Below are positions 1-16,787 of a stretch of DNA of 32,000 nucleotides, piece by piece. The stretch's first letter is position 1, and every line of letters begins with the position of its first letter. The stretch covers positions 60,001 through 92,000 of the forward strand of contig JAIUPJ010000001.1 of NCBI GenBank assembly GCA_020160975.1, read 5' to 3'. This DNA comes from Candidatus Saccharimonadota bacterium. GTDB lineage: Bacteria; Patescibacteriota; Saccharimonadia; Saccharimonadales; Saccharimonadaceae. Under the pieces are notes generated by a model. That model saw only the letters and a program-made list of their open reading frames with translations. It was not told the DNA's origin and did not search any database. The position numbers and the translations under genes are program-made.

Positions 1-1074
1 CATGTAGTAGACATGGTCGGACGTTTGTAATTTGCGCCAATCAGCTATCAACGTCATATCACCGCAGGCGAGCACCGCTTTCTCCATGTCATATATAAAT
101 CTAATCGCTTGCTGCTGCATATCATTACCGAGCCAAGCACTGAGGTCACGCTCATTATCTGCCCAAGTGATTGTCTGAGGACAGTCAAGCACGTCTGCGG
201 GTTCAAAGCTCTCAGCCGCTTCTGTCACTGTCATGAATGTATGATCGGCCTGTGCCATCCATGCACCTGGCAGCGACTCAAGAAAGTCGAAAATTCCTGT
301 CTCGCCCCATTGATGTTCACCAAATGTCTCATAGTCCATGAATAGGTTAATGAGCGGCTGATCCCAGGATTGGCCAAGCCACCCGATGAACTTTTCGGTT
401 GTCAAGGGATAGTCTGACCACTGTCGATTTCCAAAACGAAACGCAATATCATCACTGAGCTTGTAGTTTTTTGTGAGTATCCTGATCGACTCAGCTGCAG
501 GCGGCTGATATACAAAATTCGGACTGCGCCATCCCATGATGCCGTCCCAACCTTCCGCTAGAATTGCTTTGTATCCCGCTTGGTCTGCCCACTGTGCCAG
601 CTCGTTGTTATAGCTTAGCTCGGTGTTACGAAATGCAGTGGGTGTCACGCCAAAAATAGACTGAACCTTTTCGCGGTGCATTGTCACTTGCGCTTCAAAC
701 TCTTCGCGAGAGAAGAAGAATGCCAGCGAATGATAGTAGGTTTCTGCCACTATCTCTACCCGACCTGTCGCTACTAGAGCCTTAAAGCTCTCGAGGACTT
801 CAGGTTGATACTGCTCAAACTGTTCTATCACCGTACCTGTTATCGACAGCGATAGTTTAAACTCTGGATGCGTTTCCAGCATACACAGCAGCCGTTGATT
901 AGTAGGTAGGTACGACTTATCGGCAACCTTGTGCAAAATATCTTCGTTATTCCCCCGTGCGCCAGTCGGCATATCGAAGTAATTATGGCTATAGCCCGCA
1001 TCAAAGATACTATACGGTCGAATTCGGTACGGTTGATGGACGTGAAGATAGAGAACTATGGCACGCTTACTCAT
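1..1074 (-). CDS. Glycoside hydrolase family 57 (alpha-amylase / 4-alpha-glucanotransferase / branching-enzyme type), N-terminal 358 codons; the C-terminus lies beyond the left window edge
   Basis: Absent from the ORF track because it is truncated. My minus-strand translation from ATG 1074..1072 reads MSKRAIVLYLHVHQPYRIRPY...TGRVEIVAETYYHSLAFFF...LFMDYETFGEHQWGE...WRKLQTSDHVYYM and stays open to position 1. The HQP, ETYYH, ETFGEH and TSDHxYYM blocks are GH57 hallmarks. The start overlaps the upstream GT stop as ATGA (1074..1071). Confidence 0.85.
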   Translation of the reverse strand, partial: MSKRAIVLYLHVHQPYRIRPYSIFDAGYSHNYFDMPTGARGNNEDILHKVADKSYLPTNQRLLCMLETHPEFKLSLSITGTVIEQFEQYQPEVLESFKALVATGRVEIVAETYYHSLAFFFSREEFEAQVTMHREKVQSIFGVTPTAFRNTELSYNNELAQWADQAGYKAILAEGWDGIMGWRSPNFVYQPPAAESIRILTKNYKLSDDIAFRFGNRQWSDYPLTTEKFIGWLGQSWDQPLINLFMDYETFGEHQWGETGIFDFLESLPGAWMAQADHTFMTVTEAAESFEPADVLDCPQTITWADNERDLSAWLGNDMQQQAIRFIYDMEKAVLACGDMTLIADWRKLQTSDHVYYM

Positions 1075-2318
1075 ATGGTAGCTCCCACCATGCGACGCTG
1101 CTCGTGCACTACTCGATGATACTGCCTGTGGATGTTTCGAGACACAGGCGCCCATGTATGGAGCGACTGCTCCTGCTGAGCATTTCGCAGCAGGTCATCG
1201 TGGAGTGATCGGTGCTCGAGCACAGCACAAATTTGATCAGCCATACGGAAAGTGTCCCAATAATCAGCCTTCAGCACATGCTGAAGGGCTTCAGCGATTC
1301 CTGATTGTTTCGAAATCAGCGCTGGCGCGCCATACGCAACTGATTCGTAGGGCACCATCCCCAACGGCTCCGATACCGACGGCATAACAAACAAGTCAGC
1401 CATTCGAAATCCATCGCGCCACTGCTTACCAATCCCCTCGACACGACCCGTAAATATCACATTTCGAGCAATACCTAGAGATGCAGCCTGTTCAAGAAGC
1501 TCAGGAATCTGCTCACCGCCGCCCATTAACAAAAAAAGTGTCTTTGGGCGCTTTTCTATCACCAACTTGGCTGCTTCGAGCAAATAATAGATACCTTTTT
1601 GTACAGTCATACGGCCCGCATTAATCACCACGCCGTATCCTGCATCTCTCATCGACTGGATATAGCGATAGGTGTCATGCTCCTCGTCGATCAGTACCCG
1701 CGGAATCTCCATAACATTACGGGCTACCGAGATCTTTTCGGCGGGGAGATCGTATTGTTCAATCAAGGTCTGCTTGGTGCGTTCACTGACGGCAAAAATA
1801 TGATCAGCCATATGGAGCCCCATGTATTCGATCTCTCTCACTAGCGGATTACCATGTCCACCGCCAGCACGGTCGTACTCAGTTGCATGAATGTGCACGA
1901 ACAGAGGCAGGCCGCTGATACGTTTTGCCTCGATACCGGCTTTCAATGTCAACCAGTCGTGAGCATGGATAATATCAAAACTCCCTAGCTTAACCGTATG
2001 GCGCAGGTTGTTAGCAAATGCATGGACTTGCTCGTAGAGTGTGCGAGTTTTCTTGTGTCCATCAGCTGCAGTTATTTCGTAATATGTCGAGTCGTAGGTA
2101 CCTCCACTTTTCATGAGCGTCGTGGCATCTTGGTCGAGTGCGGCAGTTACCTTCATGTGCGAAATACTCGAGTAATTGCCTTGGAAGGGTAGTACGAACT
2201 CAATACTCGCGCCATCTCTTGCCATCTGGCGAGTGAGCTGATCGCAAACAACACCCATGCCTCCGACATAGTGTGGCGGCAACTCCCACCCTAGCATTAG
2301 TATGTTCATGTCAATCAT
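1071..2318 (-). CDS. GT-B retaining glycosyltransferase (GT4/GT5), glycogen/alpha-glucan synthase-like
   Basis: 415-aa ORF. The N-terminus MNILMLGWELPPHYVGGMGVV resembles the glycogen-synthase-type G-rich loop. The C-terminus has an E-x7-E motif (SEPLGMVPYES). It is translationally coupled to the GH57 gene. The start could be M1 (2318) or M4 (2309). Confidence 0.8.
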   Translation of the reverse strand: MIDMNILMLGWELPPHYVGGMGVVCDQLTRQMARDGASIEFVLPFQGNYSSISHMKVTAALDQDATTLMKSGGTYDSTYYEITAADGHKKTRTLYEQVHAFANNLRHTVKLGSFDIIHAHDWLTLKAGIEAKRISGLPLFVHIHATEYDRAGGGHGNPLVREIEYMGLHMADHIFAVSERTKQTLIEQYDLPAEKISVARNVMEIPRVLIDEEHDTYRYIQSMRDAGYGVVINAGRMTVQKGIYYLLEAAKLVIEKRPKTLFLLMGGGEQIPELLEQAASLGIARNVIFTGRVEGIGKQWRDGFRMADLFVMPSVSEPLGMVPYESVAYGAPALISKQSGIAEALQHVLKADYWDTFRMADQICAVLEHRSLHDDLLRNAQQEQSLHTWAPVSRNIHRQYHRVVHEQRRMVGATI

Positions 2319-2429
2319 GGTGGACTCTGGTGAGTCCGCACAGGCCCCTCTGTTGGTTATGCTTTTCTGGTTTTATTATAACGCCGCTTATGGCAAGAAG
2401 CAACTAGGGACAACGCTGGCTTTTCCACA

Positions 2430-3437
2430 GTGTCAACAGCCATGGAATTTGCTACACTAGGTGCAGTGAATACCCCAAAAGAAATCCAAAATGTTTTTGA
2501 TGACGTCCATCATTTTTTCGTACAACCAAATGCTTTTCGTTCGATTTTGATTCTGATTTTTTCGCTCCTTGCAGCTTACTGGATGAGTCGATTTCTGGCC
2601 CAAGCTATTGTCGCCGTCGCTCAACGCATTGCGGTGCGGAGTGACCAAGAATCTGACGATCAGCAGGCGCTCAAATTACGTCAAGTAGAGACCTACCTCG
2701 GAGTAGCTGTCGCCGTGGTGCGTGCGCTCGTCGTGGCATTGGTCGGCTACTTTGCTTGGCGAGCGCTCAGTCCCTTCGCAGGCGGCGGTGCAGCCAATGG
2801 GGCTGCAGCCATTGGTGCTGGTGCGTTCTTCGTCGTGATAGCCGGTCAGACGGTCGGCATCGTCTTGAGAGACCTTACGGCAGGAGCCATCATGATCGCC
2901 GAGGATTGGTTTAAGATTGGTGATTTTATCAGGGTAGAGCCTTTTATGGACGTCGCAGGCGTCGTAGAGCGGTTTACGCTTCGATCAACTCGCTTACGCG
3001 CCCTCAACGGTGAGATTATCTGGCTACACAATCAACACATGACAGCAGTACACGTCACCCCTCACGGAGTGCGCACCATGGCGGTTGACGTGTTTGTACG
3101 AGATAGAGAGGCGGGCGAAGTGGCTATCAATAAAATTATATCGGCATTACCAAAGGGCAAGACTATGCTCGCAAAGCCACTCCGCATCACTGGCACCGAA
3201 GAATGGGGTGAAAACCGCTGGCGCATTACTGTCATGGGCCAGACGGCACCCGGTCGTGAATGGCTGATAGAGAAGTTCTTTGTTGAGGCGCTCGTCGATA
3301 TTGATGACGGAAAAGTCGGCAGCAAGAAACTACTCGCACTACCGCCAATGCCGCGCTATGCCGATGCTGTCGCCGACAAGCGCTTCAACCGTGCGGTCCG
3401 CGTCAAGCAAGAAGGAGAGCGCAAGAACAGGCAGTAG
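2430..3437 (+). CDS. Mechanosensitive ion channel family protein (MscS-like)
   Basis: 335-aa ORF with N-terminal TM helices and an MscS beta-domain signature (WFKIGDFIRV...AGVVERFTLRSTRLRALNGEIIWLHNQHM). The start is GTG 2430 or ATG 2442. The stop is TAG. Confidence 0.8.
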   Translation: MSTAMEFATLGAVNTPKEIQNVFDDVHHFFVQPNAFRSILILIFSLLAAYWMSRFLAQAIVAVAQRIAVRSDQESDDQQALKLRQVETYLGVAVAVVRALVVALVGYFAWRALSPFAGGGAANGAAAIGAGAFFVVIAGQTVGIVLRDLTAGAIMIAEDWFKIGDFIRVEPFMDVAGVVERFTLRSTRLRALNGEIIWLHNQHMTAVHVTPHGVRTMAVDVFVRDREAGEVAINKIISALPKGKTMLAKPLRITGTEEWGENRWRITVMGQTAPGREWLIEKFFVEALVDIDDGKVGSKKLLALPPMPRYADAVADKRFNRAVRVKQEGERKNRQ

Positions 3438-3454
3438 CAGAGAGGTGTGAGGTT

Positions 3455-3463
3455 TGGTATAAT
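3455..3463 (+). promoter_or_regulatory. Candidate extended -10 promoter element (TGgTATAAT) for tRNA-Trp-1
   Basis: TGGTATAAT lies 15 nt upstream of the mature tRNA 5' end. Confidence 0.4.
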
Positions 3464-3478
3464 ACCTCAGTACACTAT

Positions 3479-3553
3479 AGGGGTATAGTATAACGGCTAA
3501 TATAAAGGTCTCCAAAACCTTAGATCGTGGTTCGATTCCACGTACCCCTGCCA
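3479..3553 (+). tRNA. tRNA-Trp (anticodon CCA), atypical AT-rich copy with encoded CCA
   Basis: Manual cloverleaf: AGGGGTA TA GTAT AACGGCTA ATAT A AAGGT CTCCAAA ACCTT AGAT CGTGG TTCGATT CCACG TACCCCT G CCA. All stems pair. The features are A1-U72 and G73 as in bacterial tRNA-Trp, plus a 4-nt variable loop. Length is 75 nt. Confidence 0.85.
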
Positions 3554-3555
3554 TA

Positions 3556-3588
3556 GAAAAACGACGACCATTTGGTTGTCGTTTTTCT
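3556..3588. terminator. Bidirectional rho-independent terminator-like hairpin after tRNA-Trp-1
   Basis: GAAAAACGACGACC-attt-GGTTGTCGTTTTTC, with an A-run 5' and a T-run 3'. Confidence 0.6.
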
Positions 3589-3610
3589 ATATACTGGAGT
3601 TGTCTGGTGT

Positions 3611-3735
3611 CGAGCCTAGATCGCGACAGCTTGCTGGCGCATAGATCTAGGTGCGGCTAATCAAGATTGACCGAAGGAGCTTGCTCATTCGCAGCAATCG
3701 CAGATTATACCTTAGTATTCCTAGTGCCCCTGCCA
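3611..3735 (+). ncRNA. tRNA-Trp-derived structured element, unit A (candidate tRNA-like sRNA or decayed tRNA copy)
   Basis: The 3' 27 nt (ACCTTAGTATTCCTAGTGCCCCTGCCA) align to tRNA-Trp-1 from the anticodon-stem 3' strand to CCA with a 10-nt deletion. It shares the D-loop string CGGCTAAT. Hairpins are at 3615-3651 (CCTAGATC/GATCTAGG with an inner CAG-CUUG-CUG) and 3673-3690 (GAAgGAG-CUUG-CUCaUUC). It is homologous to unit B with compensatory stem changes. Confidence 0.45.
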
Positions 3736-3739
3736 AGAA

Positions 3740-3767
3740 AATACGGTAACCGAAAGGTTGCCGTATT
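3740..3767. terminator. Terminator-like hairpin after unit A
   Basis: AATACGGtAACC-GAAA-GGTTgCCGTATT. The loop is a GNRA tetraloop on the + strand, flanked by A-rich and T-rich runs. Confidence 0.5.
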
Positions 3768-3793
3768 TACTTGGCCACATGGATGCGGAGGAT

Positions 3794-3922
3794 TGAGTTT
3801 CGATCTGCGGATTGCTTCAGGAAGGAGCGTAGATCGAAGTGCGCTAACCAAGTTTGACCGAGGGAGTTCGCTCACTCGCAGCTAGTGAATATTATAACTT
3901 AGTATTCTTCGTGCCCCTGCCA
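3794..3922 (+). ncRNA. tRNA-Trp-derived structured element, unit B (paralog of unit A)
   Basis: It ends in ...ACTTAGTATTCTTCGTGCCCCTGCCA. Hairpins are at 3799-3838 (TTCGATCT/AGATCGAA) and 3860-3877 (GAGgGAG-UUCG-CUCaCUC). The linker and 3' tail are roughly 85% identical by eye to unit A. Confidence 0.45.
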
Positions 3923-4209
3923 AACTGGATAGATCTCCATAGTGAAGTCTTTTTTTGTTTCCTTCGCCTCCGTTATTAATATTGTTTTCAATAGTTTTGG
4001 TTAAAATAGTACGCTGTAAGTATATCTCCTGGCTGTATGAATATCTCTCTTTCTATGCACACGAGTGGTGTAACTATTGAAAAATGTGAAGGTTTTGATT
4101 GTACTGTCATGGGGATTAGGCTACTAATACCATAATAACAGAAGACTATGACGCCGAATGTGCGAGAAAACATGGGTCTTCTTTTAGTGTTCAGCTTTCC
4201 GAACATCAT
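3923..4209 (-). pseudogene. Decayed paralog of the ApbE-like gene at 13571..14278 (frame-disrupted, internally deleted)
   Basis: 3915-3990 aligns by eye to 13641-13720, for example CTGCCAAACtGGATAGATCTC versus CTGCCAAACaGGATAGATCTC. GTTTTGGTTAAAAtaGTACGCT aligns to 13846-13868 in a different frame, which implies a deletion of about 125 nt. The 73-aa ORF 3988..4209 is only the residual frame. Confidence 0.5.
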
Positions 4210-4335
4210 GCCAGAGAACTAGCTATCAACCTATTATACTATGCATAAACCGCGCCCAAACCCCAAACTATTATGGTCCATTACGTTTATGGTGTATAAT
4301 CATTTCAACAGTTCAAGTTGGAGTAAATATAATTG

Positions 4336-7300
4336 ATGATGCGAATTTTTCGGGTAGTACTCCGGGTCTGGCACCATTCTAGGCTAGGCTTCATATTTGT
4401 CTCTATTTGCAGATGGTTCTATCTGTTTATGCGTAAACTCTTCACAGCTCCTCACCGTGCAGCCTATCAGCGCTTTTCGTGGTATCAGAGATGGAACAAT
4501 GGAACCGTTCTAAGCAGGCTACACATTCCACTCTTTCCCCTAGCGGCTGTCATCAGTACTACGTTAGTTGTAGTTGGTGTTTTTTTCATGTCGGTCAACG
4601 CCCTGTCCGACATTACGGACGTATGGGATTTCAGCGATAATTCAGACTACGCGGTATCTGACGGAGTGGAGGTGGTTGATTCTGCAGCCAAGCTTAAGTT
4701 TAACGAATATGCCGCCGACAGCGAGACGGTCGGTCTTTATCACTTTAATGAAATTAATGGCAGTACTGCCAGCGACAGTTCGTCTTACGCCAATTCCGCT
4801 ACGGTTTTTGACTCGGTTTTTGACGGGGGTATCCTTAACAACAGTTTGAGGCTGGACGGCAGCCTGAGTCGTGCGGTTGTTCCTAGTTCTCCATCCCTTA
4901 AGCTCACCCGGGACAATACAATCGAAGCATGGACAAAATTTGATAACTCATTTTCAACCAGCGCCGTACGGCGGCAGGGGATTGTCGACAAGGGCGACTA
5001 CCAGATGTACTTTAATAACGAAACTGGTAAGCTCACCTACGAGCTAGCCGACAAGAACGCCAGCGGCTGGACTCAGGCAGGCGGTAACAATGTTAATAGC
5101 AGCTGGGATCAAAGCGGCAACCGTTCCGTCAATGCGCAGGTCAAGATTGGTACAGATATTTTTGTAGGAATAGGAACTGATATAGGTGACGCTGAGGTTT
5201 GGAAATGGAGCGGTACGAACTGGAGCAAGATTGGCGGCGGCACGCCTGCTATCAACGGGAGCTGGGATGCCAACACCTACGAAGGAGTTTATTCACTGGC
5301 GACTGATGGAACCAACCTTTACGCCGGGCTCGGCACGGGTACCGGCGAAGGCGAAGTGTGGATGTGGAACGGGACGGCCTGGGCGAAAATCGGCGGCGAT
5401 AGCGTTAATGGAGGCTGGACGAACTACGCCGAGCAGGTGTGGATGCTTGATTATTTTGGTGGCAATTTATACGCAGGTCTAGGCAACACCGCCGGCGACG
5501 CAGAAATATGGAGATGGAACGGGACGGCCTGGACGAAAATTGGCGGCGACAACATTAACGCAGGCTGGACCACTGTGTACGAAGCAGTTACCGGTCTCAC
5601 TAACGACGGCACGAATCTCTACGCTGGACTTGGATCAACGGCTGGTGATTCTGAAGTGTGGATGTGGAACGGGTCGAGCTGGAGTAAGATTGGCGGCGAC
5701 AGCGTAAATGGGGGCTGGGATACAACCATAGAGACCGTCCGAAGCCTAAAGCATTTTGGCGGTAACCTGTATGCAGGCCTGGGTGACACAGCTGGCGACG
5801 CAGAAGTTTGGCGGTGGAACGGATCCGCGTGGACGAAAATCGGCGGCGACGCAGTGAGCGGAAGCTGGGCCAATGCAACCTACGAGCAAGTTACCGCTTT
5901 TGCATGGGATGGCACCAACCTGTATGCAGGGCTAGGAATCGGCAACGGCGACGGTGAGGTCTGGCGGTGGAACGGATCCGCGTGGACGAAAATCGGCGGC
6001 GACGCGCTAAGCGGTAGCTGGACAGCGAACCAAGGAGACGCAGTTAATTCATTACTATTTAATGATGGAAAGCTCTATACCGGTACATACGACGCGGCCG
6101 GCGATGGCTTATTCTACAGCTTTAATGGCACCAGCTGGACGCAGCTAGGCGGCGCATATGTTAATGAAAGTTGGGGTATGTACGGCGTCGGTTCAATGCA
6201 AGTAATGCAAGCTCAGGGTGGTTATCTCTACGCAGGGACGGGCACCGCGGCAGGCAATGCGCTCGTTTATCGCTTTGACGGTACTAGTTGGGAGCTGGTA
6301 GGTGGTCAGGGGGTTAACTCAAGTTGGAGTCCTTTTGCCCGATCGGTCGTGTATAGCATGGCAAGCTTTCAGGGCAACTTATACGTCGGCCTCGGCAACG
6401 GAGCCAACAATGCGGAACTTTGGCGCTGGGATGGAAACAGCTGGACGATCATAGCCGGTAATACGGTTGGCAGTAGTTGGGGCAGTAATTATGAGGAAGT
6501 TGACGCCCTAGCGACCGATGGTCAGTATCTATATGCTGGGCTCGGCAACAGCGCTCAAGATGGAGACGTATGGCGGTATGACGGCTCTGCTTGGCAAAAA
6601 ATTGGCGGCGATAGCCTGAACGGCGGTTGGACAACGGGAAATAACATTTATAATATTTATTCTCTGGCGGTTTACAAAGGGAAACTTATAGCCGGCCTAG
6701 GCCGCACTGCAGGACAGGGGCAGGCATGGTCATGGAATGGTTCAGCGTGGACAAAAATTGGCGGCAATGGCGTAAATGGCAGCTGGGATAGCGCTGGCAA
6801 TAACACTGAATCTGTCGAGAGTCTAATTACTTACAATGGTAGGCTCTATGCCGGATTAGGAGCCACGACAGGAGATGGTGCGGTCTGGGAGTATGATGAT
6901 GCATCGTGGCAGAAAGTCGGTGGCGACGAACTTAATGATAGTTGGGTATCTGGTACCTACGAAAGAGTAAAAACACTGAGTGTCTATAATGGTGATCTGT
7001 ACGCAGGGCTTGGCAGTACTGTGTCTCGCGGTGAAGTCTGGCGTTATCGGTCTGGTGTGTGGGAAAAAATCGGCGGGAACGGCATAAACAGTGGCTGGTC
7101 AAACGCCATTGAAGAGATTAGGTCGTTTAGCGCATATAAGGGTAAATTTTATGTTGGTCTCGGTACAACCGCAGCCGCCGATGCGCAGGTATGGAGTTGG
7201 GGGAATAATGCATTCTTAGAGTCAAATACCTCATCTTGGGATAATGATTGGCATCATGTAGCAGCAAGCTACGACGGCTCAACTATGAAACTATATGTTG

Positions 7301-10300
7301 ACGGTAGCGAAGACGGATCACGAACAGTTGCCGTTCAGATCGCCGAAAATGACCGGAGCCTACTCATTGGTGATGCGTACGGCGGGCGTGAATACGGCAA
7401 ACCAAGCGGTAATTTTGATGGCTTGATAGATGAACTGCGCATCAGCAACGTTGCTCGTACGGCGTTCAATACCGAACCTTTTTCAGATGATGCCGAGACA
7501 GTGCAGCCAGTCGCGGCTATACGTAAAGATGGCATATGGCATTGGGATGAATTCAGCCACATTACTTCTGGCGGCGGAACGGTTAAGTATAGATTGTCTG
7601 ACGATGAAGGCGCCAGCTGGAAATACTGGGACGGTACTACCTGGACAGTTTCTAGTGATCTGGGCATGACCAATACAGCGAGTGAGGTCGATGATAATAT
7701 AGCAGATTTTCCGGTGACGTTTGGCGGCCTGCTGTGGCAGGGCGTCCTACAAGGCGACGGTAATCAACGTGTGACGCTGAGCAATGTCACCGTGAAATCA
7801 ACTTCAGATGATACACTACCAGACACCAGCGGCCTGGCTATTACTGCCAAAAAGGCACATGGTGGCGCTACCTTAACAGACAGCGCATGGACGAATGGCT
7901 CGTCACCCGAATTTAACTGGTCTGGCGCGAGTGATGGCGACTCCGGCCTTGCCGGGTATTGTCTCTACATCGGTACAGACCAAACAGCCAACCCGACCAC
8001 CACAAAAGGCATGCTTGGTACGAGCCCGGTACTCACCGGTGATAAGTGTCAGTACATTGTGTCAGCCTCAACGCTTGACCTTTCATCGCCAGGCGCCTTA
8101 GCCTCGGCCCTCACGAGCAGCAACGACTTTTATTACCTACGTGTGAGCGCTATCGACAAAGCCGGCAATATATCAACCGACATTAAAACCTTTAGTTTTA
8201 AGTTTGATAACACAGCACCGTCAACCCCGGGATTCATCAGCGCTCCGTCTGGCTTCGTCAGCAACAAAGCCGTGACGCTTAGCTGGCCGACTACTGGTGG
8301 CGATGCTCCGGCCGATGCTAATTCTGGCTTGGCCGGCCTACAGTACCGCATAGGGCCTTCGGGCACATGGTACGGAGCCGCGCACGCAGGCACGGGTGAC
8401 CAGACCGATCTACTGACGAATAGCGGCAGCTACACCATGCAAGATCCGCCCGACTTCGCCAATCTTGTTGACGGTATCAACACCGTATACTTCAGAGCAT
8501 TCGACACTGCCGGAAATATTTCAACTGGTTTTGCAACCGCAGCTATCAAGCTCAACACTAGTGGCGCGCCGAGCGAACCGCTTAGTATCTCGGCCAGCCC
8601 AAGCACTAATTCCACCAACTCGTTTAGTTTTAGCTGGAGCCCACCGAACACCTTTGTCGGTGATGTCAATAACTTGACCTATTGCTACACCGTTAATGCG
8701 GCTCCGAATGCCGGCAACTGTAGCTACACCGGTGCAGGCAATACCAGTTTACCCTCAGGCGCATATGCCACTCAGCCAGGAATTAACACACTCTACCTAG
8801 CGGCTAAAGATGAATCCGGTAGTATTAATTACTCTAATTACGGGACGGCAGAATTTACCGCCAATACGACCGCGCCAGGGCTACCACTCAACGCCGACAT
8901 TGCCGACGTCTCCATTAAATCTACCAATAAGTGGCGTCTGGCTCTCACTTGGGACGAGCCGACCAGCCAGGGGTCGGGGGTCGCCAAATACGATATTTAT
9001 AGATCAACCGATGACGACCAATATTCATACGTTGGCACCAGCTCAAGCACGACTTATATTGACGCAGGTCTACAGCAAATTACGTATCACTATAAAGTTA
9101 AAGCGTGTGATAATACTAACAACTGCGGCGCCTACAGCAGTAGTGTCAGCTATCTACCGACAGGTCGGTTCACCGACCCAGCCGCTCTCGTCGCCGAACC
9201 AGAGGTGTCTGACATTACCACCCGAAAAGCAACGATTCGGTGGAGTACCGACAGGGCAAGCGACTCAAAAATTGCTATCGGTACGACCAGCGGTCAGTAC
9301 GGCCCATCGGAGGTTTCAAACTCAGACCAAGTCAGTGCACATGAGGTCAATCTCGACAACCTCGCTGCCGGCACGACGTACTACTATGTGGCGAGGTGGA
9401 CTGACGAAGACGGTAACACCGGTAACAGCCAAGAATTTACCTTCCGAACAGCTCCGCCACCAACGCTTAAGGAAATCACCGCCACGCTCGTTGGCCTAGA
9501 TGGCGTTACTATTCAATTCATCTCCAAAAACGCTACGAAAGTCGATGTACTATTCGGGCCATCAGAGTCATTTGGCGGTATCAAAACGATCAACACTTCG
9601 CTCGAAGAATCCGCCTACACTGTAAACCTCGATGCACTCACCGACGGTACTAAGTACTTCTATAAGATCGTCTCGTATGACAAAGAGGGAAGCAAGTACG
9701 ATGGTAGCACTCAGTCATTCACGACTCCGCCAAAACCAAGAATTAGCGAGATGAAGTTCCAACCGATACCAGGAAAACCAACCAGCACACAGCAGGTAAC
9801 TTGGCGCACGAACGTACCATCTACTACAAGGGTGGTATACGGTCTCCTAGGAAGCGGGGGAGAAGAGAAGACTGTGCCTGGCATGACGGCCGAGCACACA
9901 ATCGAAATCAACGATCTAATTGATGATAGCCAGTACTTCATCGTGGCACAGTCACGCGATGCAAACGGTAATCTAGCGGTATCAGATCGGCAAGTATTTA
10001 AGACGGCGGAGGACACCAGGCAACCGACGATCGATAATGTATCGATTCAGACATCCATCGATGGCGCCGGTTCATCGGCAAGAGGACGAGTTGTTATATC
10101 TTGGCGTACGGACGAACCGGCGACGAGCCAGGTCGCATATGAGCAGGGGTCCGATAAAACAATCTTCAGTACCAAAACGCCCGAAGACACCGGCCTGTCA
10201 TTCGAGCACGTCGTCATCGTTACTGATCTTCCTACTTCCCGGGTATACAGTATCAAGCCAATTTCATACGATAAATCACGAAATGAAAGCGACGGATCAG

Positions 10301-10383
10301 TAGAATCGGCTATCGTTGGTCGGGCTTCGGATGACATTCTAACGATAGTCCTTAATAGTCTCAAGGGTGTATTTGGATTCTAG
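4336..10383 (+). CDS. Giant membrane-anchored surface protein: N-terminal TM anchor, a LamG (concanavalin-like) domain interrupted by about 14 propeller-like repeats, then FN3 and purple-acid-phosphatase-N-like Ig-fold domains
   Basis: The 2016-aa ORF is uninterrupted. GGAG at 4320-4323 favours ATG 4336 (the ORF track uses TTG 4333). The TM segment is PLFPLAAVISTTLVVVGVFFMSV. LamG strands are LRLDGS..TIEAWTKF..GIVDKGDYQMYFNNETGKLTYE and later WHHVAASYDGSTMKLYVDGS..LLIGD..FDGLIDELRISN. The C-terminal half has repeated FN3-like units (e.g. TRKATIRWSTDRASDSKIAIGTTSGQYG...TTYYYVARWTDEDGN). The stop is TAG. Confidence 0.9.
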   Translation: MMRIFRVVLRVWHHSRLGFIFVSICRWFYLFMRKLFTAPHRAAYQRFSWYQRWNNGTVLSRLHIPLFPLAAVISTTLVVVGVFFMSVNALSDITDVWDFSDNSDYAVSDGVEVVDSAAKLKFNEYAADSETVGLYHFNEINGSTASDSSSYANSATVFDSVFDGGILNNSLRLDGSLSRAVVPSSPSLKLTRDNTIEAWTKFDNSFSTSAVRRQGIVDKGDYQMYFNNETGKLTYELADKNASGWTQAGGNNVNSSWDQSGNRSVNAQVKIGTDIFVGIGTDIGDAEVWKWSGTNWSKIGGGTPAINGSWDANTYEGVYSLATDGTNLYAGLGTGTGEGEVWMWNGTAWAKIGGDSVNGGWTNYAEQVWMLDYFGGNLYAGLGNTAGDAEIWRWNGTAWTKIGGDNINAGWTTVYEAVTGLTNDGTNLYAGLGSTAGDSEVWMWNGSSWSKIGGDSVNGGWDTTIETVRSLKHFGGNLYAGLGDTAGDAEVWRWNGSAWTKIGGDAVSGSWANATYEQVTAFAWDGTNLYAGLGIGNGDGEVWRWNGSAWTKIGGDALSGSWTANQGDAVNSLLFNDGKLYTGTYDAAGDGLFYSFNGTSWTQLGGAYVNESWGMYGVGSMQVMQAQGGYLYAGTGTAAGNALVYRFDGTSWELVGGQGVNSSWSPFARSVVYSMASFQGNLYVGLGNGANNAELWRWDGNSWTIIAGNTVGSSWGSNYEEVDALATDGQYLYAGLGNSAQDGDVWRYDGSAWQKIGGDSLNGGWTTGNNIYNIYSLAVYKGKLIAGLGRTAGQGQAWSWNGSAWTKIGGNGVNGSWDSAGNNTESVESLITYNGRLYAGLGATTGDGAVWEYDDASWQKVGGDELNDSWVSGTYERVKTLSVYNGDLYAGLGSTVSRGEVWRYRSGVWEKIGGNGINSGWSNAIEEIRSFSAYKGKFYVGLGTTAAADAQVWSWGNNAFLESNTSSWDNDWHHVAASYDGSTMKLYVDGSEDGSRTVAVQIAENDRSLLIGDAYGGREYGKPSGNFDGLIDELRISNVARTAFNTEPFSDDAETVQPVAAIRKDGIWHWDEFSHITSGGGTVKYRLSDDEGASWKYWDGTTWTVSSDLGMTNTASEVDDNIADFPVTFGGLLWQGVLQGDGNQRVTLSNVTVKSTSDDTLPDTSGLAITAKKAHGGATLTDSAWTNGSSPEFNWSGASDGDSGLAGYCLYIGTDQTANPTTTKGMLGTSPVLTGDKCQYIVSASTLDLSSPGALASALTSSNDFYYLRVSAIDKAGNISTDIKTFSFKFDNTAPSTPGFISAPSGFVSNKAVTLSWPTTGGDAPADANSGLAGLQYRIGPSGTWYGAAHAGTGDQTDLLTNSGSYTMQDPPDFANLVDGINTVYFRAFDTAGNISTGFATAAIKLNTSGAPSEPLSISASPSTNSTNSFSFSWSPPNTFVGDVNNLTYCYTVNAAPNAGNCSYTGAGNTSLPSGAYATQPGINTLYLAAKDESGSINYSNYGTAEFTANTTAPGLPLNADIADVSIKSTNKWRLALTWDEPTSQGSGVAKYDIYRSTDDDQYSYVGTSSSTTYIDAGLQQITYHYKVKACDNTNNCGAYSSSVSYLPTGRFTDPAALVAEPEVSDITTRKATIRWSTDRASDSKIAIGTTSGQYGPSEVSNSDQVSAHEVNLDNLAAGTTYYYVARWTDEDGNTGNSQEFTFRTAPPPTLKEITATLVGLDGVTIQFISKNATKVDVLFGPSESFGGIKTINTSLEESAYTVNLDALTDGTKYFYKIVSYDKEGSKYDGSTQSFTTPPKPRISEMKFQPIPGKPTSTQQVTWRTNVPSTTRVVYGLLGSGGEEKTVPGMTAEHTIEINDLIDDSQYFIVAQSRDANGNLAVSDRQVFKTAEDTRQPTIDNVSIQTSIDGAGSSARGRVVISWRTDEPATSQVAYEQGSDKTIFSTKTPEDTGLSFEHVVIVTDLPTSRVYSIKPISYDKSRNESDGSVESAIVGRASDDILTIVLNSLKGVFGF
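5090..7210 (+). repeat. Intragenic tandem coding repeat array of 13-14 units of 150-159 nt (50-53 aa), consensus GDAEVWRWNGSAWTKIGGDxVNGGW..YE.V.sL...GgNLYAGLG
   Basis: I counted 13 full W/Y-x-W/F-x-G-x-x-W-x-K/Q-I/L-GG cores plus one partial. Unit offsets are 5194, 5353, 5503, 5653, 5803, 5956... A 44-nt perfect copy occurs at 5809-5852 and 5962-6005. Confidence 0.9.
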
Positions 10384-10384
10384 T

Positions 10385-11167
10385 ATGAAAAGTACAAATG
10401 ACAGTTTAATTAGGGTTGAGAATGTGTCTCAAGAGTTCGGCACCGAAGATATGGTGGTACGGCCTCTCAACGATGTCAGCTTTTCACTCGCCAAAAACAG
10501 CTTTAACATCATCTACGGTCCGTCAGGCAGCGGAAAGTCCACGCTCCTCAACGTCCTTACGGGACTGCAATCGCCTACCAAGGGTAAAGTATATATCGAC
10601 AACAAGGATGTCTATGCCTTGTCGCGCGATGAGCTCGCCAATTTCCGGGCGAGCAGCCTCGGGTTCATTTACCAGACTAACTACTGGGTAAAAAGTCTAA
10701 ATGTACTCGACAACGTTGCGATGTCAGCATACTTTTCAGGATTAACGCGAAAAAGCGCCCATAAGCTTGCTTACGAGGCGCTTGAGATGGTCGATATGAA
10801 ATCTTACGCTCACAAGTATCCGACCATGCTTTCAGGTGGCGAGCAGCAGCGAATCGCAATAGCCAGGGCTCTAGCTACTAACCCGTCATACATTATAGCC
10901 GACGAACCGACTGGAAGCCTTGATAGCACCAACGGCGATAAGATCATGAGCCTCCTTGTACGTTGTCAGCGCGACCTTGACCGTACTATTATTCTAGTGA
11001 CGCACAACCTTGAATATATGCCGCTAGCCGATAAATTGCTTCATATTGAAGACGGCCGAGTCAAGGAAATAAACGAAGGTTCAATCAAACAGACCACGGA
11101 CGTACTGTTCGCCGACATGCGCTCGCGAATGCATAGACTAGAAAAGGCACAAACAGATGTCAAGTAA
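10385..11167 (+). CDS. ABC transporter ATP-binding protein, MacB/LolD/FtsE-type
   Basis: Walker [10 protein letters not shown], signature LSGGEQQR, Walker B IIADEPT and H-loop VTHN are present. ATG 10385 starts 1 nt after the giant gene's TAG. The ORF-track start at 10367 is an upstream extension. Confidence 0.9.
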
Positions 11168-12365
11168 AAACGAGTTCAAATTAGTCAAACGCAGAGTGCT
11201 CATGTTCATGGCATGGCGCAACCTAACTCATAAAAAAATGAGATCATTCCTAACACTTTTTGGTATCGTGATAGGTATAGGCGGTATCTATTTTTTGATT
11301 TCGCTTGGTCTCGGTATCCAGCAACTGGTTACCGATAGAGTTGTAGGAGGCGAATCGGTGAAATCGATCGACGTCACCACTGCAAACGAAAAAAATATCA
11401 GCTTAGACTCCGATACCTATACCAAATTAAAGAATTTACCCCATGTTATAGGCATTGGCGGTATGTATTCCTTCGCTGGGTTAGTAAATCTACGAGGTTC
11501 TAGTGTCGATGCGGTCGTGTACGGAGCGAACGACAGTTACCTTAAAATGCTCGATCTCAAGCTGCTCAGCGGTAGTCTCATAAAAACCGGATCAGACAAC
11601 GACATCCTTATTAATCAATCAGTGCTGCGTTCGCTTGATTATAAGAAGCCCGAGGACGCAATTGGTAAAAAAATTACACTTATCATACCGTCTCTAGGGG
11701 TAGAAGAAGTACAATTTAAAAAAGAATTCACCATCGTCGGGGTGAGCGCCGATCAAAGCGGCGCAGAGTTGTACGTGGCTTCTGATATTCTTATGGCTGC
11801 AGGAGCCGAGAACTTCAACCAGATACGCATTGAGGCAAGTGATGTCGATGGGGCTCGGTCGCTTCGTTCCCAAATTAAAGCCCTGGGCCTAACAACCACT
11901 TCCCCAATCGATACGGTAGATCAAATCGACCAAGTCTTCAAATTCTTCAATCTCATACTTGCAAGTTTCGGCGCCATTGGCATGATAGTAGCAATTTTAG
12001 GTATGTTTAATACTATTACCATCTCTCTACTTGAGCGAACAAGGGAGATAGGGCTTATGGTCGCTCTCGGAGGGCGGGATACCGACATGCGGATGCTGAT
12101 AATCTTTGAGGCAACGCTCCTTTCGGTTATAGGTTCGATCCTAGGAATCCTCAGCGCTACTATTTTTGGCCAGCTCATCAATCTTGGGTTGAACCTTTTT
12201 GCGCGGTCACGCGGTGTAACCGAAGGTTTTCAGCTTTTCGCCACGACCTGGTGGCTCGTTCTTGGCACAATAGGATTCATGATGCTCGTCGGTTTGGTTG
12301 TGGTCTTCATTCCTGCAAGGCAGGCTGCCCGCCTGAACCCAATCGACGCATTAAGAAGAGAATAG
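11157..12365 (+). CDS. ABC transporter permease, FtsX/MacB family
   Basis: 402 aa. One N-terminal TM is followed by an extracytoplasmic domain of about 230 aa and three C-terminal TMs (FtsX-like: ...ISLLERTREIGLMVALGG...). It overlaps the ATPase gene by 11 nt. Confidence 0.85.
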   Translation: MSSKNEFKLVKRRVLMFMAWRNLTHKKMRSFLTLFGIVIGIGGIYFLISLGLGIQQLVTDRVVGGESVKSIDVTTANEKNISLDSDTYTKLKNLPHVIGIGGMYSFAGLVNLRGSSVDAVVYGANDSYLKMLDLKLLSGSLIKTGSDNDILINQSVLRSLDYKKPEDAIGKKITLIIPSLGVEEVQFKKEFTIVGVSADQSGAELYVASDILMAAGAENFNQIRIEASDVDGARSLRSQIKALGLTTTSPIDTVDQIDQVFKFFNLILASFGAIGMIVAILGMFNTITISLLERTREIGLMVALGGRDTDMRMLIIFEATLLSVIGSILGILSATIFGQLINLGLNLFARSRGVTEGFQLFATTWWLVLGTIGFMMLVGLVVVFIPARQAARLNPIDALRRE

Positions 12366-12525
12366 TCGGTACCAAACTCCAACTCTTTGGAGCGTATGAA
12401 ACAGGCTCTTGTCATCATCCGTATTAAACGCGCTTCAGATCGCGCTCAAAATTTTCATTGAAAATTCGTGGTTATATAGCTTTGATACAATCAAAGATGA
12501 AGCAGAGCTTTGACTTGAGAAGATG

Positions 12526-12663
12526 TTACGCATTGTCGCGACCCTCCTCGTCAGGAAAACTAATTAGACCACGATAAGTTTGATGATAGTCCTGAAGCCC
12601 TTGCCACGAAATTTGTAAAGTATTAATTTGAAGATGATAGAACCACCGGCCTCTGTTAATCAT
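12526..12663 (-). CDS. Small hypothetical protein, 'WQG' family copy 1 (about 45 aa from M43 of the 87-aa ORF)
   Basis: MINRGRWFYHLQINTLQISWQGLQDYHQTYRGLISFPDEEGRDNA. It is a paralog of 20057..20224, and several of the codon differences are synonymous. The longer 87-aa ORF (to 12789) runs into the SDR promoter region. Confidence 0.45.
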   Translation of the reverse strand: MINRGRWFYHLQINTLQISWQGLQDYHQTYRGLISFPDEEGRDNA

Positions 12664-12823
12664 ATCTTCGGATATGATTTTTCTAATTTTACAGCTTTCA
12701 TCACCCCTGTCGATGAATTCGACTCCATTAGCTCCTTTTGACACGTACCTTTCATTACGTTGAGAACTTTTGCTAGTATTGGTATGCACCGATGATCTAT
12801 CCTCTGATATAATTTACATAACC

Positions 12824-13558
12824 ATGAAAGACAAAATCGTATTAGTTACAGGATCCACACAGGGAATTGGGCTCGCAACCGCGCATAGACTATATTCCCT
12901 CGGCGCTTCCGTCGTTCTAAACTCTCCATCCGATGAAGACACTTTTATACTTGAGCAATTCGAAGATAAGAATCGAGTGCGCTTTTTTGCAGCCGATATT
13001 TCAGACGAAGTAGCCTTACTTAATTTAAAAGATTTTATCGTTTCCGAGTTCGGAAAGTTGGATTGCCTTGTCGCCAATGCCGGTGTCCTTCCTACACCTG
13101 CAGGAATTGATGATATTAGTGACGAAAACATCAGTCGAACTATCGACGTTAATCTTAAGGGTACCTTCAAATCGCTTAAAATTTTTGGCAGACTCATCCA
13201 GGAGACATCGCAAACAGGGTCAATAGTTAACATAACGTCCGTCGACGGAATAATAGGTGAGCCGTACGGTGTAATATACTCGGCTACAAAAGCTGGTATT
13301 ATTTCTTTCACGAAATCATTCGCTCGAAAGTTTAACGAGCCTCTTGTAAGGGTTAACGCTGTGGCACCTGGTCTTATAGATACGCCGCTCAGTACCAGTA
13401 CCGGCGAAGACCCAAGCTGGACGACAGACCTCTCTGTGATAAGACGAATCGGCGCTCCCGAAGAAGTTGCAGCCACTATTGTGTTCCTACTAAGCCAAGA
13501 TGCATCTTTTATAACAGGGCAAGTTCTAGCGGTTGACGGCGGATTTACTCTCAAGTAA
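12824..13558 (+). CDS. Short-chain dehydrogenase/reductase (FabG-like 3-oxoacyl reductase family)
   Basis: TGSTQGIG glycine motif, NAG, and the YSATK catalytic Y-x3-K are present. The likely start is MKDKIVLVTG at 12824 (the ORF track extends to 12770). Confidence 0.85.
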   Translation: MKDKIVLVTGSTQGIGLATAHRLYSLGASVVLNSPSDEDTFILEQFEDKNRVRFFAADISDEVALLNLKDFIVSEFGKLDCLVANAGVLPTPAGIDDISDENISRTIDVNLKGTFKSLKIFGRLIQETSQTGSIVNITSVDGIIGEPYGVIYSATKAGIISFTKSFARKFNEPLVRVNAVAPGLIDTPLSTSTGEDPSWTTDLSVIRRIGAPEEVAATIVFLLSQDASFITGQVLAVDGGFTLK

Positions 13559-13565
13559 TCACGAT

Positions 13566-13648
13566 AAGGGCTAGACATTCCTCGTCTCCAAAATAGTGTT
13601 TTCATTAACAGAGTAAAAAGTTCTATCTTCATCCATGTACCCCTGCCA
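13566..13648 (+). pseudogene. Decayed tRNA-Trp copy (pseudo-tRNA)
   Basis: 13632-13648 TCCATGTACCCCTGCCA matches the tRNA-Trp-1 3' end (3537-3553) at 16 of 17 positions. 13584-13593 GTCTCCAAAA equals the anticodon stem/loop string of both intact tRNA-Trp genes. 13564-13570 ATAAGGG resembles the 5' junction ATAGGGG. The D arm is lost and about 19 extra nt sit between the anticodon loop and the 3' end. Confidence 0.55.
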
Positions 13649-14278
13649 AACAGGATAGATCTCATTTTTGAGGTCTTTCTTGTTTATTTCACCTCTGTTA
13701 TTTTCGTTCTTTTCAGCGGTTTTGTTAAGCACTTTTTGAGATTCCATAATTTGGCGTGTTTCGTCACTTCTTTTTGCTATAGATTCAGCCAAGAATGACA
13801 ATTTAACAGATACAGAATTGCTTGCGTAAACGATTTCATCAAAGAGTTTGGTTAAAACCGTACGCTTTGCGTCATTACCCATATCAGCGTCTGTGTATTG
13901 AGCCTTTGCGTGCTGTGTAAGCTCCATGATCTCTACTTCGTCCCAAAAATCCGCCTTTACATTTGCTGCGTTTTTACGCATGCCATAGCCGCGTTTAAAC
14001 AGTTCACCGCCCACTGAAATGTAGAAAACGCCGTCGCTGAGAGCGTGTATTTTTTGAGAAAAAGCGAACATGTCTAGCAGTTCTTGAGGTGGGTGGACGA
14101 GCTTTTTCTTACAATTAAGCTAGCCAATCAGCGAAGTGTCTGTGAAGCGTGTGTAGGCATCGTTAAAACTCTGGATTTCGTGAGCTAAAAATGCTGAATC
14201 GTTTGGTGCCCATACGCCGTCGAGTCGTTCGATCCACCAGTGTGTGCCAAGTGCGTCAATTTCAAATATATCGGTCAT
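13571..14278 (-). pseudogene. ApbE-like FAD:protein FMN transferase, truncated or chimeric, with an in-frame TAG
   Basis: My translation from ATG 14278: MTDIFEIDALGTHWWIERLDG...EIQSFNDAYTRFTDTSLIG*LNCKKKLVHPPQELLDMFAFSQKIHALSDGVFYISVGGELFKRGYG...DMGNDAKRTVL. This matches the ApbE N-terminal pattern (MGT; S-x-l-s-x-lN; dGaFDiTvgpL..lWGf; D-l-G-g-i-a-K). The TAG is at 14120-14122, in frame with the 166-aa ORF. The C-terminal motifs TSG and HiiDP are absent. The last ~26 codons are the reverse complement of the pseudo-tRNA. Confidence 0.6.
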
Positions 14279-16266: not shown

Positions 16267-16394
16267 TATCCTTTTCCCTTCATATACTGACATTATACCA
16301 TGTAAAAATACCCTATCTGCAGATATGGTGGACTCGAATCTCTTTGTTCTACATCTTCGAAGTTTTTTGTATTACATAGGAGATTCGGTATAAT

Positions 16395-16590: not shown

Positions 16591-16606
16591 TAATATAGTT
16601 TGTCGA

Positions 16607-16682
16607 AGGGGTGTAGCTCAATTGGTAGAGTAGCGGTCTCCAAAACCGGGTGTCGTAGGTTTGAGTCCTGCTACCCCTGCCA
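16607..16682 (+). tRNA. tRNA-Trp (anticodon CCA), canonical bacterial-type copy with encoded CCA
   Basis: AGGGGTG TA GCTC AATTGGTA GAGT A GCGGT CTCCAAA ACCGG GTGTC GTAGG TTTGAGT CCTGC TACCCCT G CCA. It closely resembles the E. coli tRNA-Trp architecture as I recall it. Length is 76 nt. Confidence 0.9.
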
Positions 16683-16694
16683 CGAGATTATAAG

Positions 16695-16726: not shown

Positions 16727-16787
16727 CTACGAAAAAGTTTGGTTGTCCTACTACCCCTAAAATGACCCTGTCTGATAAGCTATATTT

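Follow-up and report, generated by a model that had tools for sequence, protein, structure and literature searches.

What are the two structured units that lie directly 3' of a tRNA-Trp gene in Candidatus Saccharimonadota bacterium: small RNAs related to the tRNA, or parts of a mobile element that settles at its 3' end? The units, here called A and B, stand in a stretch of 32,000 nucleotides (nt) of GenBank assembly GCA_020160975.1 (contig JAIUPJ010000001.1, positions 60,001 to 92,000, forward strand). This whole stretch is referred to as the window and plain coordinates are positions in it; the loci compared with it carry L numbers. A preliminary description had taken the units to be derived from tRNA-Trp and had offered two readings of them, i.e. 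tRNA-like small RNAs co-transcribed with the tRNA or displaced tRNA 3' halves fused to conserved element ends. We found that they are a previously undescribed, structurally conserved element of Saccharibacteria, tied to an array of cassettes that is anchored at a tRNA gene. The finding is more than a simple attachment site (att) scar, but it is not a tRNA-Trp-derived small-RNA family; the second of the two readings comes nearest to the results of our strain comparison. With moderate confidence, we explain units A and B as cargo-less mobile cassettes that carry a folded cis-acting recombination site and are served by a recombinase in trans. Saccharibacteria, like the candidate phyla radiation (CPR) generally, have tiny genomes (~1 Mb) and few recognised mobile elements, yet gene content differs between strains. 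Here, the locus is an array of small cassettes swapped between near-identical strains with no integrase found adjoining it, and the units are a conserved structured element outside Rfam that is built on a split copy of a tRNA T-loop. The literature that we searched holds no description of such an element.

A structured unit built on a split T-loop

Two tRNA-Trp genes were called in the window by ARAGORN and Rfam (tRNA-Trp-1 and tRNA-Trp-2, Table 1). tRNA-Trp-1 is followed by units A and B, each with a terminator hairpin ahead of it. Units A (~3606-3735) and B (~3781-3922) are direct repeats with 83% identity over 81 nt and ~70% over 211 nt. Both end in GTGCCCCTGCCA and, as previously proposed, they are real paralogues that each close with the tRNA-Trp 3' terminus; the last 9 nt of tRNA-Trp-1, CCCCTGCCA, are the core that is repeated. 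The stems and loops originally quoted were all found: stem 1 pairs CCTAGATC with GATCTAGG in A and TTCGATCT with AGATCGAA in B, stem 2 pairs GAAgGAG with CUCaUUC in A and GAGgGAG with CUCaCUC in B, and the loops are CUUG, CUUG and UUCG, the GAAA loop belonging to the hairpin after unit A. That hairpin is present, but it is the first element of the next cassette and not, as had been thought, unit A's own terminator.

The family comprises 15 units from ~11 distinct loci in Saccharibacteria (CPR) assemblies. When one genome per GTDB species was scanned for the core pattern, five true homologues came up, each of them in a metagenome-assembled genome (MAG) of Saccharibacteria, and the same scan of JGI metagenomes returned nine further true matches with six distinct sequences. 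Covariance model R1 was built from 11 pattern-seeded units; in loci fetched via synteny of the MscS (mechanosensitive channel) gene it added four more, one in L029 and three in L037, including one L037 unit that fails the core pattern. All 15 units lie on the tRNA strand just 3' of a tRNA gene or of a partial tRNA 3' end. The contexts are tRNA-Trp (window, L018, L022, L029, L037), tRNA-Glu (L010, L011/L019, L013/L027), tRNA-Thr (L025/L026) and partial tRNA 3' ends (L007, L015, L017, L021). Model R1 found no diverged copies beyond these in ~360 kb of fetched loci, and more distant Saccharibacteria reached through synteny of the pyruvate kinase gene (pyk) have tRNA-Glu without units (L039-L042). 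There were 0 core-pattern matches in IMG/VR viral contigs, a phage database matched the tRNA itself alone, and a plasmid database gave no match. Rfam 15 gave no gathering-score match in the units, and E-values up to 10 brought up chance-level microRNA or small-RNA matches alone. A match to a known element end, which had been named in advance as speaking against the structured-RNA idea, was absent from the Rfam, phage and plasmid records, and the stems of the homologues are kept rather than broken at random.

The layout of the family is constant in the unit alignment. From 5' to 3' it consists of (i) a left arm, which is an inverted and variably degenerate copy of the 3' part of the local tRNA (acceptor 3' strand, T-stem, T-loop and variable region) and agrees with the reverse complement of the tRNA at 16/16 positions in L013, 14/14 in L029, 14/15 in L010, 19/24 in L025 and 20/25 in L022; (ii) a variable spacer, often a hairpin; (iii) a mid segment, which repeats in direct orientation the variable region, the T-stem 5' strand and T-loop positions 54-57 (TTCG or TGCG); (iv) a rod of ~52 nt formed by helices P1b ((A)TAATC/GATTA(T)), P2 (4-7 bp, with the sequence free) and P3 (CGArGGAG/CUCAyUCG, in which a G.A mismatch is conserved) and closed by a CUUG, CUCG or UUCG loop; (v) a linker; and (vi) a tail that starts at T-loop A58, continues over the T-stem and acceptor 3' strands, ends in CCA and is identical to the local tRNA 3' end over 19/19 nt in L013, L025 and L037 and over 11-12 nt in L010 and L022. 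Since the mid segment ends at T-loop G57 and the tail starts at A58, the rod is inserted at the identical position, between 57 and 58, in Trp-, Glu- and Thr-type copies. In unit B, helices P1b and P2 of the rod are lost or degenerate, and unit B is therefore a partly degenerate copy. Minimum free energy (MFE) folds of six units (A, B, L013, L021, L022 and L025) gave a three-way junction in which an outer closing helix meets stem 1 and the rod; the closing helix is formed by left arm and tail in B, L021, L022 and L025 and by the 5' end and the linker in A, and is weak in L013.

This anatomy changes the relation of the units to tRNA-Trp. The string CGGCTAAT, previously assigned to the D-loop, occurs in unit A alone, the equivalent family segment being T-loop TTCG (TGCG in A) followed by the rod start CTAATC. 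ACCTTAG, which had been read as a remnant of the tRNA-Trp anticodon stem, is instead the conserved linker, and is also found behind tRNA-Glu and tRNA-Thr, whose tRNAs do not contain it. Because both strings belong to the rod junction and the linker and recur behind these other tRNAs, they reflect no homology to the D-loop or anticodon stem of tRNA-Trp. Nor is the unit as a whole derived from tRNA-Trp, as its core (rod plus linker) is the same behind tRNA-Glu and tRNA-Thr and the flanks alone copy whichever tRNA is local. The units share with real tRNA (RF00005) the T-stem and T-loop sequence and the acceptor 3' strand with CCA, but they lack the acceptor 5' strand and the D and anticodon arms, and their T-loop is split by 60 nt, so that the label tRNA-like does not hold for them. 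ARAGORN and RF00005 called neither unit, cmscan found nothing tRNA-like in 3554-4100 at E-values up to 10, and the two tRNA-Trp genes are the only calls that ARAGORN and cmscan made.

Folding energies of single sequences do not stand out (z = -1.2 for A, +0.2 for B) and are uninformative, so the evidence for structure is comparative. Among 11 units, 82.5% of the cells of the rod alignment are standard pairs and 36 cells have changed on both sides; with 15 units the values are 83.5% and 42. Slid controls gave 27-46% paired cells, 27-45% being the range set against the 83.5%, and 2-14 double-change cells, and 0/500 shuffles reached the observed paired fraction, number of double-change cells or covariation score. 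Compensatory changes in the rod thus exceed those in shifted-register and shuffled controls, as in a structured element under selection. One P2 pair is C-G in 5 units, U-A in 4, A-U in 3 and G-C in 3, with 0 unpaired, and the A-U to G-C swap originally seen in stem 2 between A and B recurs across the family (9 G-C, 6 A-U, 0 unpaired).

Coordinated changes were also found in the T-stem copies. The order tRNA-unit A-unit B is colinear with tRNA-unit 1-unit 2 of L037, where the MscS proteins are 71% identical, and as the spacers of the two loci are recognisably homologous, the tandem pair is older than the split of the two lineages. Read as left arm, mid segment and tail, the T-stem segments are CCACG, CGTGG and CCACG in L037 unit 1; CCGCG, CGTGG and CCACG in L037 unit 2; CCTAG, CTAGG and CCTAG in unit A; and TTTCG, CGAAG and CTTCG in unit B, which has an additional matching CGGAG farther 5'. 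tRNA-Trp-1 itself retains CGTGG/CCACG. Changes coordinated over three or four segments support maintained pairing and, together with the rod covariation, bear out the earlier proposal of structured, homologous units whose pairing is kept by compensatory changes. The cause of the coordination could be selection on the fold or conversion between the arms of the palindrome.

The second of these causes is part of an explanation in which the units are decaying, functionless recombination scars and the compensation stems from repeated copying of tRNA alleles or from gene conversion between the palindrome arms. Conversion could homogenise the arms, the left arm of L025 contains uncompensated transversion mismatches, and the loss of P1b and P2 in unit B is what decay would produce. 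Against this, the rod covariation involves several pair types and extends over ~11 distinct loci and three tRNA contexts, and rods are 85-91% identical (hand counts) between genomes in which flanking genes are ~70% identical; we give this explanation the least credence of all. Rods are likewise ~91% identical across tRNA contexts (L013 Glu vs L022 Trp, hand count), and do not group by tRNA type in the same comparison.

The + strand is favoured by the tetraloops, the G.A mismatch, the G.U pairs of the terminators and the T.G/G.T pairs of stem 1 in unit B and its L037 orthologue, the G.U wobbles of stem 1 pairing on this strand only. This orientation bears on a further explanation, in which the unit is a small-RNA gene carried as cassette cargo. 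The RNA would be a + strand three-way junction acting through its tRNA-matched segments, e.g. as a ligand or mimic of the cognate tRNA or of an enzyme that handles tRNA, and the tRNA-like tail would double as a part of the RNA and as the att duplicate. Rod covariation combined with strongly conserved unpaired bases, the G.A mismatch and CUUG/CUCG/UUCG tetraloops on the + strand would fit such an RNA, as would the invariant orientation to the tRNA, the persistence of the tandem pair between lineages that are ~70% identical, and a left arm that is perfectly antisense to the adjacent tRNA in L013 and L029, even where the unit's own mid segment no longer matches. In L025, where no terminator separates tRNA-Thr from the unit and tRNA-Tyr comes next, the gene order makes co-transcription appear likely. 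However, a terminator hairpin with a T-run stands ahead of almost every unit, and a simple scan found no promoter-like site upstream. Strains with 98-100% identity in the vicinity differ in whether they have the units, which excludes a host-essential role, the folding energies are not exceptional, and the 3' CCA often pairs with TGG of the left arm, so that the unit does not have an acceptor-like end. On balance we consider a small-RNA gene rather unlikely; if the units were a small RNA matched to the neighbouring tRNA, they would represent a new kind of tRNA-linked regulator.

The tRNA-anchored cassette array

The core CCCCTGCCA occurs six times in the window, at 3545, 3727, 3914, 13640, 16674 and 20156, always on the + strand, where 0.15 occurrences are expected. 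The array extends from 3554 to ~21250 downstream of a glycosyltransferase (GT4) gene, the MscS gene and the tRNA gene, and contains at least seven cassettes, with cores at 3727, 3914, ~12598, 13640, 16674, 20156 and ~21080. Cassette borders read ...CTGCCA followed by A(A/G), with the border directly after CCA. Many cassettes are tiny (130-700 nt), and their cargo is surface-protein, transporter, chaperone, regulator or peptidase genes, or none. Positions of the features are collected in Table 1. The hairpin that leads the first cassette was not listed by a simple scan; terminator stems commonly extend to pair with the preceding ..CCA.

Table 1. Features of the tRNA-Trp locus and its cassette array (positions in the window)
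Feature	Position	Strand	Description
tRNA-Trp-1	3479-3553	+	CCA anticodon; T-stem CGTGG/CCACG; array anchor
Cassette E1	3554-3735	+	182 nt; terminator hairpin and unit A; directly follows ...CCA and ends with ...CCA
E1 leading terminator hairpin	3555-3589	+	G.U pair on + strand, then T-run; read directly from the sequence
Unit A left arm	3606-3622	+	inverted degenerate copy of tRNA T-loop and T-stem 5' strand (..TCGAGCCTAGATC); 5' strand of stem 1
Unit A spacer hairpin	3623-3640	+	GCGACAG-CUUG-CUGGCGC; homologous to the L037 unit 1 spacer
Unit A mid segment	3644-3655	+	direct copy of variable region, T-stem 5' strand (GATCTAGG) and T-loop 54-57 (TGCG)
Unit A rod	3657-3708	+	stacked helices P1b (TAATC/GATTA), P2 (GATTG/CAATC) and P3 (CGAAgGAG/CUCaUUCG); CUUG loop; between T-loop 57 and 58
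Unit A linker	3709-3716	+	ACCTTAGT; family consensus AYCUWAGU
Unit A tail	3717-3735	+	T-loop 58-60, T-stem 3' strand CCTAG, acceptor 3' strand, CCA; att-like core copy; right border of E1
Cassette E2	3736-3922	+	187 nt; terminator hairpin 3739-3768 (GAAA loop), then unit B
Unit B left arm (in E2)	3781-3806		
Unit B spacer (in E2)	3807-3830		
Unit B mid segment (in E2)	3832-3843		
Unit B rod (in E2)	3844-3895		
Unit B linker (in E2)	3896-3903		
Unit B tail (in E2)	3904-3922		
'R1'-type cassette right end, degenerate	12557-12606	+	..GATGATAGTCCTGAAGCCCTTGCCA
'R3' cassette right end	13607-13649	+	43 nt; T-loop-to-CCA derivative with 5-nt T-loop insertion
Pseudo-tRNA-Trp 5' part with I5 insert	16423-16606	+	~85-nt structured T-loop insert, then inverted T-arm copy
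tRNA-Trp-2	16607-16682	+	canonical type, inside the array; 3' end is CCCCTGCCA
'R1'-type cassette right end	20115-20164	+	..GATAATCATCCTTCAGCCCCTGCCA; closes cassette with ClpB-like (AAA+ chaperone) gene

Comparison of strains showed that cassettes are gained, lost and reshuffled between near-identical genomes. L004, which is 98-99% identical, matches the window over 1053-3553 and again over 3918-13649, with units A and B replaced by an unrelated 263 nt; 3' of 13649 it has other small cassettes, each opening with a terminator hairpin and closing with ..CTGCCA. In L047-L053 the MscS protein is identical and the match to the window ends at 3553. L047-L052 then carry a cassette with a gene for a TrpR-like regulator, and in the four loci that are long enough (L047-L049 and L051) an M15 peptidase gene follows and the cassette ends with the same 43 nt as 13607-13649; in L048 the next cassette is the one that follows 13649 in L004. 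Cassettes E2 and E3 of L018 are 97% identical to those of the window but immediately follow a type-2 tRNA-Trp, and the upstream region there is only 68% identical; in L021 the two stand behind a foreign GC-rich island ending in ..CCCCTGCCA; across the L018 and L021 contexts E2 and E3 are 97-99% identical. L036, L037 and L038 are identical up to two nucleotides past the CCA of the tRNA, beyond which L036 and L037 are unrelated and the contig of L038 ends. These strain variants fix the borders, so that E1 (182 nt) and E2 (187 nt) are complete cassettes bounded directly after CCA.

Every type of right end seen is a T-loop-to-CCA derivative with an insert in the T-loop: 5 nt in R3, the rod in the units, and a structured insert of ~75-85 nt (I5). 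The 43 nt of R3 have an identical copy in L047 and L049 and a 97.7% identical one in L048 and L051 (L047-L051:5680-5722), and this module closes two unrelated cassettes, namely the short-chain dehydrogenase (SDR) cassette of the window and the cassette with the TrpR-like regulator and M15 peptidase genes of the other strains. A repeat family, AGACTATTTAGCTCGCGGTACGTTTGATAATCATCC plus TTCAGCCCCTGCCA, marks the cassette ends at 12557-12606, 20115-20164 and 21045-21080 and also occurs in L021, where the copy folds as a T-arm-like hairpin (TTCAG-TAATCATC-CTGAA).

The variety of inserts raises the possibility that the rod alone is mobile, as an insertion or an intron- or intervening-sequence-like element that targets the universal T-loop sequence GTTCG-A and survives in the dispensable partial tRNA copies left by earlier integrations. 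An insertion point between G57 and A58 that is the same in Trp, Glu and Thr T-loops would agree with this, as would rods that are not clustered by tRNA type and the existence of at least three unrelated T-loop insert types (the rod, a short rod in L043, and I5 between 54 and 55) besides the 5-nt insertion of R3 ends. Yet no rod was found outside the unit context in ~360 kb of loci or in the pattern scans, and no rod-less unit was seen. Furthermore, L013 and L022 resemble each other in terminator and spacer too, which makes the whole cassette homologous and not just its rod, and the rod has no terminal repeats and no transposase nearby. We therefore judge a separately mobile rod to be improbable.

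A proposed folded recombination site and its known parallels

Patchy presence in near-identical strains together with the ~91% rod identity across tRNA contexts points to an accessory, mobile element, and argues for a conserved structure that would serve the element's own propagation. In the cassette explanation that we favour, a cassette runs from the base after one ...CCA up to the next ...CCA and comprises a terminator hairpin, a left arm, a spacer hairpin, and a right arm split by rod and linker. Cassettes would enter and leave by site-specific recombination in the shared core of the tRNA 3' end (CCCCTGCCA in the window), each new insertion shifting older cassettes downstream. Palindrome and rod would act in cis as the site of the cassette itself, in the form of a folded single strand: the left arm would pair with the right arm and rebuild a duplex copy of the tRNA gene 3' end from which the rod protrudes, and a recombinase encoded outside the arrays would act on it in trans. 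The observed order of tRNA copy, body, inverted copy, spacer and direct copy matches what integration of a folded hairpin att site leaves behind. The cassette and att part of this explanation is well supported, and the folded-site role of palindrome and rod is what we infer.

Several observations weigh against it. No integrase or recombinase domain was found with Pfam and PHROGs in the larger open reading frames (ORFs) of the window or in the ORFs adjoining ~12 arrays, including those of L004, L013, L015, L021, L029, L036 and L037. Other cassettes of the same arrays have a short tRNA-like right end without palindrome or rod, so that a segment can reside in an array without the rod. The unpaired rod bases, the G.A mismatch and the CUUG/CUCG/UUCG loops are conserved beyond what is usual for a DNA hairpin site and are RNA-like, and the strand is not settled by comparing the numbers of G.U and A.C in the rod. 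The unit of L025 has no terminator ahead of it. In L029 the left arm fits the adjacent tRNA (T-stem TGAAG) while the mid segment and tail of the unit itself belong to the CGTGG type, so that the palindrome is not always intact, and the rod of unit B is degenerate. Finally, homologous recombination on the conserved tRNA, with no site-specific enzyme, could lie behind some of the strain breakpoints.

A row of elements with partial tRNAs between them is the known footprint that repeated site-specific integration leaves at the 3' end of a tRNA, as reported for the tycheposons of Prochlorococcus (bioRxiv 10.1101/2020.12.28.424599). The locus shares with tycheposons the anchor at the tRNA 3' end, partial tRNA copies between elements, newer insertions that push older ones outward, strain-variable content and cargo-less remnants. 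Direct repeats of the tRNA 3' part and tandem accretion at one tRNA, as in islands of the tycheposon type, are both present, with strain breakpoints at the CCCCTGCCA cores. The locus differs in that no integrase or replication module lies in or near the arrays examined, the cassettes are tiny, the host belongs to the CPR, and the partial tRNA copy is paired with an inverted copy and has a structured insert in its T-loop. What is new relative to the tycheposon footprint is thus the cassette size, the recombinase-free surroundings of ~12 arrays and the palindromic, rod-bearing right end.

Known folded hairpin att sites include the attC sites of integrons and the attP(+) hairpin of CTXphi. As in integrons, the cassettes form arrays, are small, mostly single-gene or empty, and have one orientation; an imperfect palindrome forms the right end, its apex being variable and a strand-specific feature protruding from it, the border lies at the base of the hairpin, and structure is conserved above arm sequence. 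The palindrome, with a left arm that inverts the right arm or the tRNA 3' part, is found in unit-type cassettes only and not in every cassette. Unlike attC, the sites have no R''/R' boxes (RYYYAAC/GTTRRRY, crossover between G and TT), no GTTRRRY occurs at any boundary here, and the protrusion is a rod of ~52 nt instead of one to three extrahelical bases. There is also no IntI gene and no attI/Pc platform by the first cassette, the anchor being a tRNA gene which the arms copy. Structural features of attC sites are treated in PMC2727003.

The CTXphi attP(+), reported by Val et al. in 2005, is said to consist of two inverted target-like sites in single-stranded DNA that form a forked hairpin and are integrated by host XerCD. 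The units resemble it in having inverted and direct target-like copies with a spacer, which, in a geometry read here from sequence, could fold as a duplex mimic of the chromosomal target, and in the post-integration layout of target copy, body, inverted copy, spacer and hybrid direct copy. Here, however, a tRNA 3' end takes the place of dif as target, there are no phage genes, and the element is ~185 nt long. As a tentative, and in our view doubtful, proposal the locus may be an integron-like but integron-independent cassette system in which the tRNA 3' end takes the part of attI and folded att hairpins mimic the duplex of T-arm and acceptor; the rod would mark the strand or recruit the trans recombinase, or the rod-bearing unit would be a programmable RNA cofactor.

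A programmable RNA is also the basis of a last explanation, in which a constant scaffold with target-matched segments, like the bridge RNA of IS110 or the omega RNA of TnpB (IS200/IS605), would steer a trans enzyme to the T-arm or 3' end of the tRNA. The units share with these RNAs the structured scaffold, here constant and joined to three segments that match the local tRNA, and a 3' segment that equals the flank: over its 19 nt the 3' tail does not differ from the flanking target, which recalls RNAs with a guide derived from the flank. An antisense segment left and a sense segment right of T-loop position 57/58 would, in addition, pair with opposite DNA strands on the two sides. The matched segments are, however, long (10-31 nt) duplicated pieces of the target and not loop-embedded guides, and duplicated att sequence explains them more simply. 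There is no cognate recombinase or nuclease gene adjoining the 15 units, no IS110, TnpB or IscB-type gene or recombinase near any copy, and no match to a bridge-RNA or omega-RNA family of Rfam, and we regard a guide RNA as very improbable.

If the element were a recombination site or an RNA cofactor, the arrays would represent a new cassette-capture system and a new route of gene flux in Saccharibacteria, and covariance model R1 would be a searchable marker for the variable regions of CPR genomes.

Other features of the window and related loci

The genes of the window encode, among others, a glycosyltransferase (GT4), MscS, a 2016-aa LamG repeat protein, an ABC/FtsX transporter, a short-chain dehydrogenase, a VWA-domain protein, a ClpB-like chaperone and a polysaccharide cluster. 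The LamG-domain protein (4333-10383) contains ~10 tandem repeats of ~50 aa (GD.EVW.WNG..W.KIGGD) with a period of 150 nt between 5053 and 7104, and its cassette is 97-99% identical among strains with differing flanks. Two types of tRNA-Trp swap at one MscS-linked locus among relatives (L018, L029, L032, L035 and L037): one has an AT-rich D arm and is ~80% identical to phage tRNA-Trp genes, and the other is canonical. The window has both, and L004 has the first type alone within the 21 kb fetched.

The element at 16423-16606, just upstream of tRNA-Trp-2, has degenerate acceptor, D and anticodon arms and its own GGTATAAT-type promoter. It is 71% identical to a copy in L022, and its hairpins appear by visual inspection to covary; Rfam, including E-values up to 10, gave no family match for the I5 element on 16330-16760. 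Two tandem cassettes behind tRNA-Glu in L043 (L043:5886-6200) include one with an I5-type insert (L043:5925-6055) and one whose rod is a shorter variant, reduced to P1b and the linker (scoring 29.5 bits with model R1). Extended -10 promoters (TGGTATAAT or GGTATAATACC) recur at 3449-3466, 16380-16397 and 4290-4300, upstream of the tRNA and of the I5 element.

A minus-strand ORF of 166 aa (13571-14071) runs over a CCCCTGCCA core (..EIYPVWQGYMDED..), which on that strand would encode WQG. A coding reading of the core was rejected because this ORF has no Pfam family and the homologous copy at 3911-4010 is frameshifted. After unit B, a 94-nt stretch (3911-4004) is 76% identical to the ORF region and frameshifted, and the region is probably a shared left end of cassettes and not a conserved protein. 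In some units the sequence GGTGCG-ATAA bears no more than a casual resemblance to dif-like XerC/XerD arms. A possible inverted core after unit 2 of L037 falls inside the 3' end of a called minus-strand gene (9383-10297).

Among the related loci, L013, L011 and L019 (MAG ELA335 and metagenome variants) have a module of ~270 nt, i.e. tRNA-Glu, terminator and unit, which is found on two contigs of one MAG with differing flanks; a variant contig is without the intervening DNA, and the arrangement looks like an island between two whole copies of the tRNA-Glu module. In L015 (L015:4972-7281), a gene pair for a Beta_protein (PF14350) and an M78/IrrE-type peptidase adjoins the unit in an island-like context.

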